Both the position numbers and the translations under genes were made by a program. Under the pieces are notes generated by a model. That model ran no database searches and was not told the DNA's origin. It saw only the letters and a program-made list of their open reading frames with translations. A stretch of 63,413 nucleotides of DNA, counting the filler, from Aduncisulcus paluster (lineage: Eukaryota), in the NCBI GenBank assembly GCA_024181965.1. It is 35 parts of 35 records of this genome, joined end to end, with 100 filler letters (N's around TTAATTAATTAA, not from the genome) between each part and the next. Parts side by side here need not be neighbours in the genome. Positions count along the whole stretch, not along the records: positions 49,268 to 50,562 come from BQXS01000611.1; 34 more parts are not named here. One strand, given 5' to 3'. Position 1 is the stretch's first letter. Each line of letters opens with the position of its first letter. Shown here in pieces: positions 46,477 to 50,662 of the stretch.

Positions 46477-49167
46477 GGACTACCCTTGTGGAACCAAGCC
46501 TGTTAAAAACCTTGCGATTAACGGCTAGGATTGGCGAGGAAGCGACCCCGGAAGAGTTGCATGAAGCACTGAACAAGAAGTTTGCCGCGTCCACGACCCA
46601 GGCTTATTATGACCAATTAAAAGAAATGAAACTTGAGGTTCTGACTCCGACCGCTCTGGTGAAGTACACTGCCGACTTCCAGGAGATTGTGGACCGTCAT
46701 CCAGACTTTGGTGATGATGAGCATGTGGCTGCGATGTTTTTACGAGGATTAAAGATTCCCCGTCTTTCGGAGCGGACTCGATCTGAAGTTGACACGGCTG
46801 GGAAGAAGAGTGACCTCGAATTCGTAATTCAACAAACATTCACTGAACTGGAAGAAATGGTTGCCATAAAAGACGAGGTTCTCAAATATTCCAAGTCTTT
46901 CGGATTAAGCGTCCGTCAATTCAAACCCTCCTGGACTGGAGGCAAGCGTAGACGTGCCGAGGAACCCCTAGATAGGAAACCGATTAGATGCCATCGATGT
47001 GGCAAACTTGGGCACAAGGCTGCAAATTGTAGAAGCTTACCCGACAAACCTTCACAATCCACTAAAACAACATCAAACGAAAAGAGACATTCCTTCACCA
47101 AGTCAACAGGGAATAAAAACTTTTCGGTCTATCTGGCGTTATGCTTAAACGAATTTTAGAAAGGTTTTGACACCCCTGGACTGGTAGACACTGGTTCTGA
47201 GCTCAACATAATGAGTCGGGAACTGTGGGAAATGTTGGATCCAAAAGGTAAGATAGAAAAAGAGATAACAGATATTATTTTGGAACTCGCCGATGGATCA
47301 ACTCGGAAAGTATCCGAGAGAGTTAGGATACTGGTGAAAATGGTTGGAGCGATGGATAAGCAAATTGAATTCTGGGCAGATTTCATTTTGCTAGACATTA
47401 AATCAGAAGCCAGACATAAAGTAATAATTGGTTCGGAAACTGCTTCAAATGTTGGTTTGATAGACCTGACATTACCAATTAAGACTGATAAATATATCCC
47501 GGAAGATTGGGAAGAATGTGATTTCGATAGTTGGGACAAAGGTAATCTGGAGTGCGATAAACCAGAACTCGATGACGAGATTGGGCCGATCTTACGTCAT
47601 TACGAGGAACGGGATTCCCTCAACAGAGCAGCCAGCGTCGAGCCGATGAAAATCATATTGAAACCAGAGAGTAATCCAGTTGCTCAACCACCAAGGAATT
47701 TACCTTACAAGAAGGAAAAATATGTAACTGAAGAGATTCAGGACTTGTTGGAAAAAGGCTACATAACACCGTCATGCAGCCCATGGTCCTCGCCAGTTGT
47801 GGTGGTAGGAAAGAAAGATGGTGGGTTCAGATTGTGCGTAGACTACAGATTAGTCAAGAACACATAATTGAAGATAGGTTCCACTGCCTAGAATAGATGA
47901 TGTTTGGGCAACATTGGAAGGCTCAATAATTTTCGCGGTATTGGATTTAAAGTCCGGATACCATCAGATGCCCTTGGCCGAAGAATCCAGACAGATAACA
48001 GCTTTCGTTACTCGTGACGGATTATTCGAGTTTACAAGGGTACCATTCGGTATTAAAACAGCTCCGGCGTTTTTCCAAAGAACGATGGTGTCAATACTAC
48101 ATGATTTATTATATTCAGCATGCTTGGTCTACCTAGACGATATCATTATTTTTGGCAAAACATATGATGAATTCGTGGCCAACTTGAAGAAGATTTTGAC
48201 GAGATTGTCGGAGGTGGGGCTGTCCTTGAACAGGAAGAAATGTCAGATCGGCGTGGGAGACGTCGAGTATCTGGGAATGCTTATCAACAAATATGGGAAA
48301 AAGATTTCGCCGTCAAGGTTGAGAGCGTTGAGATTAATAGATACTCCCAGGACAAAGAAAGGTATAAGAAGAATAATGGGGCGTTAAACTATATGAGGGA
48401 GTTTATTGATCACTACTCAGAAGTAACCGAACCAATATCAAGACTTCTGTCCGGACCAGAACATAATATACAATGGGGACAAGAACAAGAATCTGCTTGG
48501 GAGGAAACGCTGGACCTCCTCGAGAAAAATATCACTTTAGTACATTTTGATGACGAAGCAGAAATTTTTGTAAGGACAGATGCGTCAACTATAGGGGCTG
48601 GTGGAATGCTGGGTATGATGAAGGATGGAAAAGAATACCCGATAGCATTTTACAGCCACAAATTCACGGAAACCCAGAAGCATTGGTGTACTCTGGAACA
48701 AGAGGCTTTTGCTCTTTTCTGGGTCCTTACAAAGGCGAGGAAATATCTGTGGGGTCGAAGTTTCACGGTGGAAACTGACCATAGAAACCTCACCTTTATG
48801 CTAAAATGTGAATCAGCAAAGGTCCAAAGATGGAGGATGTCGGTGGCTGACTTCAACTTTGTCATTAAACATATTCCAGGAAAACTTAATAAGGTAGCTG
48901 ACACATTGTCAAGAGGTTTCCATAAGACCAGTATAACACCCTCGAGCTGTAAACTCAGCAGCCCAATTCAGTCAGATAATCATCAACTCAATATCTTATT
49001 GAAAATCAAAGATGCACAGGAATCAAGTTTATCGGATACAGAAAAGAAAAACTTGTTTTTGCTTGATGAATTCTGGGTGACTGCAGAAGACAAAATCTTC
49101 ATCCCAGCCAAGGAGACCAAACTGCAAGATGATCTCGCCAAGATGGCACACAGGCACCCTCTGGGGG
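46477..49167 (+). mobile_element. Degenerate Ty3/Gypsy gag-PR-RT-RNaseH (in-frame TAG at 47157, frameshifts near 47865 and 48380)
   Basis: CHRCGKLGHKAANC; LVDTGS; LDLKSGYHQ, YLDD; TDAST, ETDHRNL, HIPGKLNKVADTLSR. Confidence 0.95.
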
Positions 49168-49267
49168 NNNNNNNNNNNNNNNNNNNNNNNNNNNNNNNNN
49201 NNNNNNNNNNNTTAATTAATTAANNNNNNNNNNNNNNNNNNNNNNNNNNNNNNNNNNNNNNNNNNNN

Positions 49268-49822
49268 CCATGAGGCACAGAGCAAGGCTAACTTAATGAT
49301 AACTTCATCTTCTGAGGGCACAGCAGTTATCACCACAAGAAGGGCAGCCAGAGTGTGGGCCCTGGAGTAGAGGCTTGGGGAGAGGTCGGCAGAGATCTCT
49401 ATCATCTCTCCGGCGAGAGCGATGAGGAGGTCAACGGAGGGGAGCTCGTAATCCTCGGCATGGGCATCAGCCACTACACCGAGGTTCCTCCAGAAGGTCG
49501 GAATATCACGGGGCCTACGGTGGAGGGCGGCGACTGCGGCTGTGGCGGCGTTACTTGCTGATATCGCAAGTGGAGCTGTGGCAACCCTTCTCTTTCCCGT
49601 TCCTTTTCCCCCGCGAGAGGAACTGGAGGAGGACCGGGAGGAACTGGAGGAGGACCGGGAGGAACTGGAGGAGGACCGGGAGGAAGAGCTGCCAGCTCCA
49701 GTGGAGGAAGTGCGGGAAACCTTGACGGCTATCTGCCTCTTCTTCGTGCCAGTGGCAGCCGCCACGGTCTTATCAGCGGTTTGTTGGCTAGTCTTTTTAC
49801 CAGTTTGTTTGGTGCGTGCCAT
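49268..49822 (-). CDS. Divergent histone H3-like protein with Ser-rich tail insertion (3'-partial)
   Basis: MARTKQTGKKTS; KRQIAVKVSRTS resembles RKQLATKAARKS; possible degenerate alpha1-L1-alpha2. Confidence 0.6.
49617..49679. repeat. 21-bp perfect tandem repeat x3 (encodes SSSSSSR)
   Basis: GAGGAACTGGAGGAGGACCGG x3. Confidence 0.95.
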
Positions 49823-50077
49823 TTTGTTACAAAATTTAAGAATTTTTATATTCTTTCTGTATTCGTTTGTCCGTACAATAAATTTAGGTAAATTATATCG
49901 TATATATATCCACTGTCTTATGAATTTATTTTATCGCCCAGTTCTTATATGGAAATTCTGATGTTGCGGGGTGTAAAATTTGAATGAATTTCTCAGAACA
50001 CCAAAGTTTTCATATGCATAAAAATCGAAATTGCAAAAATTTTGTTTTATTTAATGCTTATTATTCGTGGTAACTAT

Positions 50078-50521
50078 TTATTGTTTGTAAGCGAGCCACG
50101 GAAGGTCGGCGAAGTAGGATGTGTACAATTCAAGGACTTTGACATCTGGCCATCTCTCAATGCGAGTTCTAAACTTCTCATCAGCTCTAAGTTCTTCACA
50201 TATTATCCTCTTCCTCTCGCTATCAGGCAACCTGCGGTTGTTTTTCACGTCTTTTCTATCATACTCATACTGACAGAGGGCATCGAGTAATCTCACAGCA
50301 ATCTTTTTGGAAGTGAGCTCGATGCTTGTGAAGAAGGATTTAGCAGTGGATAGGAAGGCTTCGAGGTTCTCAGCAGTAACAGTTAACTCTCCAGTTATGA
50401 GGGCTGGAATAGTGGACTGGATCATTGTGTCCATCTGAGAAAACCTACGTTTTGTTAACTGATAGACCCTTTTTAGGTTCTTATTGACCTTAACGAGTTG
50501 CTGATGATGAGTCGTTTCCAT
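50078..50521 (-). CDS. Orphan helical protein immediately upstream of the H3-like gene
   Basis: AAAATG start, 147-aa ORF, no family recognised. Confidence 0.55.
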   Translation of the reverse strand: METTHHQQLVKVNKNLKRVYQLTKRRFSQMDTMIQSTIPALITGELTVTAENLEAFLSTAKSFFTSIELTSKKIAVRLLDALCQYEYDRKDVKNNRRLPDSERKRIICEELRADEKFRTRIERWPDVKVLELYTSYFADLPWLAYKQ

Positions 50522-50662
50522 TTTCTTATACAAAAATGATAGTAGTTTTTGTGGCCATATTANNNNNNNNNNNNNNNNNNNNNNNNNNNNNNNNNNNNNN
50601 NNNNNNTTAATTAATTAANNNNNNNNNNNNNNNNNNNNNNNNNNNNNNNNNNNNNNNNNNNN

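Follow-up and report, generated by a model that had tools for sequence, protein, structure and literature searches.

The open reading frame (ORF) studied here begins with the first residues of histone H3 and lies on the minus strand of an assembly contig of the free-living fornicate Aduncisulcus paluster. Its ATG is at 49820-49822, and the frame stays open to 49268; the N-terminus of the product reads MARTKQTGKKTS and then KRQIAVKVSRTS. Positions count along the window, the whole 63,413-base stretch of DNA that was analysed, and the features of the contig are as follows:

49268 to 50562, no strand: assembly contig with the ORF, 1295 bases, delimited by N runs and the linker pattern at 49168-49267 and 50563-50662
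49268 to 49822, minus strand: partial coding sequence of a lineage-specific family, 185 codons, with its 3′ end cut by the contig end
49793 to 49822, minus strand: codons 1-10, MARTKQTGKK; residues 1-7 equal those of H3, and none of the ten varies across four of four family members
49617 to 49685, minus strand: 21-nt tandem repeat encoding SSSSSSR three times (3.3 copies, 100% matches, repeat family D9), with a copy number that differs between paralogues
49586 to 49612, minus strand: basic Gly/Lys patch GGKGTGKRR, residues 71-79, shortened to GGKRR in the paralogue P0005
49268 to 49582, minus strand: start of a conserved, predicted all-helical domain, residues 81-185, from conservation and low-confidence AF2 secondary structure; contigs of sequencing run X1 pass 49268
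49823 to 50077, minus strand: AT-rich spacer of 255 nt upstream of the ATG, from the GC profile and comparison with contigs of runs X1 and X2
50078 to 50521, minus strand: upstream ORF of 147 aa on the same strand, with its frame open to the contig end at 50560 and no family match

The window consists of 35 pieces, mostly 1.0-1.6 kb, and is no single chromosome stretch. This fragmentation fits the A. paluster draft genome, which was assembled from short reads into 25,863 contigs (N50 4.6 kb; PMC9933649). The linkers between the pieces are identical and artificial, each consisting of 44 N, TTAATTAATTAA and a further 44 N, and they bear stops in three frames on both strands (e.g. 49168-49267 and 50563-50662). 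As the pieces are unrelated contigs, neighbours give no context: the ORFs with RT/RNase H (47211-49167) and the one that is kinase-like (from 50933) are on contigs separate from that of the H3-start ORF, and therefore say nothing about this gene. The chromodomain-retroelement setting proposed in a preliminary description of the locus was a product of contig concatenation, the retroelement ORFs being on a different contig. In the same way, 49268 is the contig end and therefore not the end of the gene. The practical lesson for the scan is that a coordinate beside a run of N does not mark where a gene stops, and first-stage findings in this window that use neighbouring genes or cross a linker need rechecking. 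The protein search likewise gives 1295 as the longest contig for the window's own protein (P0002), and Rfam returned no matches on the 1295-base contig.

The GC content is 0.25-0.32 upstream of the ATG versus 0.52-0.65 within the ORF. Three exact SSSSSSR units are followed by SRGGKGTGKRR, and both elements are present as first described. An open frame of 169 codons also runs on the opposite strand (49452-49958, plus), as one would expect of coding sequence that is rich in GC and carries a repeat. The minus-strand frame is favoured over it by the annotation and by the substitutions between paralogues, which are conservative in that frame (I/V, L/F, Y/F and S/T). The upstream 147-aa ORF has no Pfam or PDB match; the first hit in the protein atlas, a closterovirus coat family (0.91, 144 shared features), was taken to be a chance match.

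Searching 5.8 billion proteins through a word index returned four matches: the window's own product and three paralogues (P0003-5), each named in NCBI as 'hypothetical protein ADUPG1_..., partial [Aduncisulcus paluster]'. The paralogues are 73-77% identical to the window protein and come from contigs of 812-1072 bases; all are partial, and the two longest reach 228 and 238 aa without a stop. Family members differ at about a fifth of columns, yet MARTKQTGKK opens all four and these ten residues are invariant. Common to the family are a Ser/Arg repeat of variable length and strong conservation from about residue 80 on, and the GGKG.GK motif is found in three of the four, with P0005 having GGKRR instead.

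Wider searches returned little beyond these four proteins. Exhaustive HMMER searching of 1.84 billion representative proteins found the family itself and one 3413-aa repetitive bacterial protein; the latter matched 11 times through an Ala-rich stretch and is regarded as spurious. When longer relatives were sought with residues 75-228 of P0004, none of 2588 candidates scored at E ≤ 0.01, and a 67-aa C-terminal piece, used to look for a C-terminal extension, matched only P0003-5 among 66 candidates. Pattern searches gave 220 hits in JGI metagenome contigs and 228 in IMG/VR viral contigs, with no confirmed relatives in either, and tblastn detected no further copies within the window. The ten-residue start, sought as a DNA pattern, occurred once in metagenomes, as MASTKQTGKK in a bacterial ORF. 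Judged by these sequence comparisons, the family is multi-copy and found only in A. paluster. The suggestion that the ORF could simply be the single-copy CenH3 orthologue is contradicted by the four paralogues and by the lack of relatives outside A. paluster, while the family-wide conservation of the ARTK tail that had been asked about is borne out by the invariant start.

We compared contigs of two public runs, X1 and X2, neither of which is recorded as RNA, with the 1295-base contig. X1 contributes seven pieces, among them two long contigs (1526 and 1975 letters) that match without difference and cover the contig except for the Ser repeat. These extend past the contig at either end, each time by about 1.1 kb, and the gene therefore continues. 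X2 contributes 182 contig pieces at ≥90% likeness, and its variants have a summed depth far above that of the window version (e.g. 55103/60727 at 49373-49374), a quantity that sums contig depth and is not a copy number. Together, the X1 and X2 contigs point to near-identical versions beyond the four members that are annotated. Other copies diverge from the window copy at 49963-49972, 141-150 nt upstream of the ATG.

A separate observation concerns a short island within the AT-rich spacer at 49930-49965, 108-143 nt upstream of the ATG. Two further X1 contigs contain it with 2 differences, it is present in other X2 contigs as well, and it falls in the X2 bin with the highest summed depth across the stretch. 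Allowing up to 3 mismatches, a search of the window gave no second copy. The island may serve as a shared promoter element or mark the border of a repeat unit.

We asked whether any member of the family contains a histone fold. As reference H3s we used genes from IMG/VR contigs fetched by the MARTKQT pattern, 16 of which were aligned. None of the four family members matches the Pfam histone family PF00125 (E ≤ 10 for the window protein, E ≤ 1 for P0003-5), a model that scores 1.2e-46 with the control H3 L003 and 3.6e-27 with L026, a divergent 212-aa viral H3-like protein. When hhalign set the family profile against that of the 16 H3s, the alignment was confined to columns 1-16 (63% identity, probability 47.7%), with the fold region left unaligned. 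Neither the protein nor the family profile retrieved a histone in sequence searches of the PDB, phmmer with the first 40 residues found no PDB match at E ≤ 10, and a tblastn search of the window with H3 recovered only 12 N-terminal residues, at E 1.1. The stretch FWRNLGVVADAHAEDYELPS, which had been placed without gaps against helix α1 of H3, has a BLOSUM62 score of 5 with 4 identities against L003, equalled by 1000 of 1000 C-terminal shuffles. Even the best ungapped 20-mer anywhere scores only 16, which 821 of 1000 shuffles reach.

Structure prediction agrees with these searches. Two AF2 models, both of low confidence (pLDDT 46.2 and 48.8), show 7-8 helices of 12-22 residues with short loops between them. 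The predicted helices are alike in length, as opposed to the short-long-short arrangement of the histone fold, so AlphaFold modelling of the protein alone did not bear out the fold first proposed. The partial paralogues, at 228-238 aa, also exceed the histone length of about 100-200 aa. Foldseek with the second model gave no hits at E ≤ 0.001; its weak top ranks, to which we attach little weight, are helical-repeat proteins, with no histone among the 50 ranks listed. Look-alikes in the language-model protein atlas are HEAT/ARM-type N-terminal domains at 0.82-0.85, below the 0.9 threshold for a lead. The family protein thus has no histone fold; in the reading that we favour, it is not a nucleosome component. 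We conclude that a larger helical domain, of no assigned kind, begins in the conserved region; the models hint weakly that this domain may resemble a helical repeat more than a histone fold.

The resemblance to H3 is concentrated at the extreme N-terminus, where the first seven residues are those of H3. Numbered without the Met, R2, T3, K4, T6 and K9 are kept, as the preliminary description had stated for K4 and K9, while G, K and T (with I for T in two paralogues) stand in place of A7, R8 and S10. The ARKS motif, of which the H3 tail has two, is absent, the sequence reading GKKT, or GKKI in two paralogues. When residues 8-40 of three members were compared with residues 8-45 of 16 H3 tails, 23, 95 and 83 of 300 shuffles reached the observed mean. 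Past residue 7, the likeness of the tail to H3 is, as far as these comparisons go, what composition predicts. The previously proposed K27-region alignment accordingly dissolves: as residues 8-40 fare no better than shuffles, this "K27 region" reflects composition and not alignment. Of the idea of a histone-tail mimic, the first 7-10 residues stand, being invariant in four of four members, and the remainder of the tail does not.

How much weight can an H3-like heptapeptide bear? Among 118 IMG/VR loci, 55 ORFs start with MARTKQT and 47 of these are at least 45 aa long; 27 of the 47 have an H3 fold, and the other 20, in 11 unrelated clusters and mostly on phage-like contigs, have none. The heptapeptide by itself is thus no proof of H3 descent. 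Two long viral ORFs with a MARTKQT start and no H3 fold are those at L001:9315-10958 (547 aa) and L056:290-1849 (519 aa), the latter of which reads MARTKQTGVTRQTKQT. A different case is a 145-aa ORF on a 5157-base contig from an IMG/VR giant-virus bin (L074:4525-4959, plus strand), whose first 25 residues are 92% identical to H3. Past residue 25 it is acidic and then strongly basic and has no PF00125 match, and the remainder of the contig holds no further H3 segment. This ORF may be a second, independent protein with only an H3 tail, or an H3 gene with an intron or cut by the contig end.

With its architecture, its paralogues and its lack of a histone fold established, the A. paluster protein is probably best described, on our analysis, as a lineage-specific non-histone protein that bears an H3 N-terminal mimic of the M-Z-R-X-K kind, with a function that we infer. 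The M-Z-R-X-K rule, which describes N-termini enriched among chromatin proteins, is the published rule for H3 N-terminal mimicry proteins (H3TMs; Chen et al. 2021, PMC8166343). These are human proteins, 48 in number, whose tails bind PHD/Tudor readers after Met removal and whose K4 can be methylated (PMC8166343). The start M-A-R-T-K, present in four of four members, agrees with the iM-Z-R-X-K rule, in which Z is a residue permissive for Met removal.

The protein is laid out as an N-terminus matching H3 residues 1-7 (ARTKQT after the initiator Met), a Lys/Thr/Ala-rich basic tail of ~35 residues, the variable-length Ser/Arg repeat, a short Gly/Lys/Arg patch, and a conserved, predicted all-helical domain extending past the contig end. 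Ala at position 2 would permit removal of the initiator Met and expose A1-R2-T3-K4. Proteins that recognise K4 and the free N-terminus of H3 could then bind or modify the exposed tail, and this would either link the helical body with regulators of chromatin or set up competition with H3. The restriction of the apparent H3 likeness to seven residues is counted against mimicry.

Coincidence has an appreciable, if minority, chance; here the H3-like start would have arisen by chance or from an unrelated cause, for instance a basic signal for nuclear import or one for N-terminal processing, and the protein would have no connection with H3-tail readers. Selection of the finding from a very large scan makes coincidence non-negligible. 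The 11 unrelated non-histone viral clusters starting with MARTKQT, the bacterial MASTKQTGKK as sole metagenome match to the ten-residue pattern, the failure of the tail after residue 7 to rise above composition in its H3 likeness and the lack of a PDB phmmer match for the first 40 residues at E ≤ 10 all speak in its favour. It has to account, however, for ten residues that are invariant in paralogues differing at about a fifth of columns, and for a host that is a eukaryote with chromatin. Moreover, ARTKQT after the Met in any of ~15,000 proteins would be expected with a chance of ~1 in 1000 or less, an estimate from typical residue frequencies. The papers found on ARTKQT in non-histone contexts concern, judging by title and the opening of the abstract, histone modifiers and readers and their substrates, and none has as its subject a protein family that starts with ARTKQT.

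We also considered the family as a high-copy selfish repeat, a transposable element or integrated virus, with the H3-like tail as a decoy or chromatin-targeting handle. All four contigs of the family are short, at 812-1295 bases, and their breaks fall within about 60 codons of each other; X2 contains 182 pieces at ≥90% likeness, with variants deeper than the window version (55103/60727 at 49373-49374); copy likeness stops 141-150 nt upstream of the ATG, at 49963-49972; and the GC content of the ORF is about twice that of its flank. All of this would suit a repeat, but summed contig depth is not copy number, and the 1295-base contig carries no transposase, reverse transcriptase, integrase, capsid family or terminal repeats, the nearby RT/RNase H ORFs being on another contig. 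Furthermore, at 73-81% identity the annotated paralogues resemble an old gene family more than they do recent element copies, and no relatives were found in viral contigs. We hold this reading to be unlikely. Quite unlikely, too, is its more specific form, in which a selfish element of a free-living metamonad would carry H3(1-7) on a helical-repeat body and so hijack or titrate the host's readers and writers of H3K4 and of the H3 N-terminus. If a selfish element were nevertheless at work, this would be histone-tail mimicry by a genomic parasite, not by a virus of animals, and interest in the family rises if it proves part of a mobile element.

One further candidate is an H3 or CenH3 so diverged that sequence methods no longer see its eroded histone fold. 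Such a protein would account for a start identical to that of H3, and CenH3s with long, unrelated N-terminal extensions are known (PMC2995078). This was the first suggestion of the preliminary description, and the fold tests go against it: none of the four members matches PF00125, the PDB sequence searches give no histone, hhalign aligns columns 1-16 without the fold and the claimed fold pairing is at chance level. The predicted helices are also of like length instead of short-long-short, and the protein runs at least 100 residues beyond the expected end of the fold. In CenH3 proteins the tail diverges and the fold is kept; the pattern here is the opposite. We regard an eroded histone as highly improbable and close to refuted.

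Several known systems offer comparisons. Like the H3TMs (PMC8166343), the family is non-histone and has an initiator Met, a small residue and R-x-K at the N-terminus. Its match spans seven of seven residues, past the four-residue rule, and the family is multi-copy and known in one metamonad only. The human H3TMs are defined functionally, by reader binding and K4 methylation (PMC8166343); in the family, comparable binding and modification would be expected by analogy. With H3 and CenH3 (PF00125) the family shares residues 1-7, Lys at 4 and 9 and a basic Lys/Thr/Ala-rich tail, but it lacks the histone fold, the ARKS motifs and orthologues, and is longer, with a Ser/Arg repeat and a multi-helix domain. 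In viral mimics, the influenza NS1 tail among them, a short linear histone-tail motif likewise sits in a non-histone protein; theirs are internal or C-terminal and viral, whereas the family motif is N-terminal and no viral relatives were found (PMC6028506). The alpha-solenoid HEAT/ARM-type N-terminal domains resemble the family in a predicted run of helices of similar lengths, with Cnd1_N, HEATR5A, MMS19_N and TAN as the look-alikes at 0.82-0.85; the family differs in scoring below the 0.9 threshold, in having no Pfam match and in models with pLDDT <50.

Mimicry of the H3 N-terminus has so far been studied in human proteins and in animal viruses. If the A. paluster mimic works, it would extend this strategy to a deep-branching free-living protist, and would be the closest copy of the H3 start yet seen in such a protein, at seven of seven residues, within an expanded gene family.
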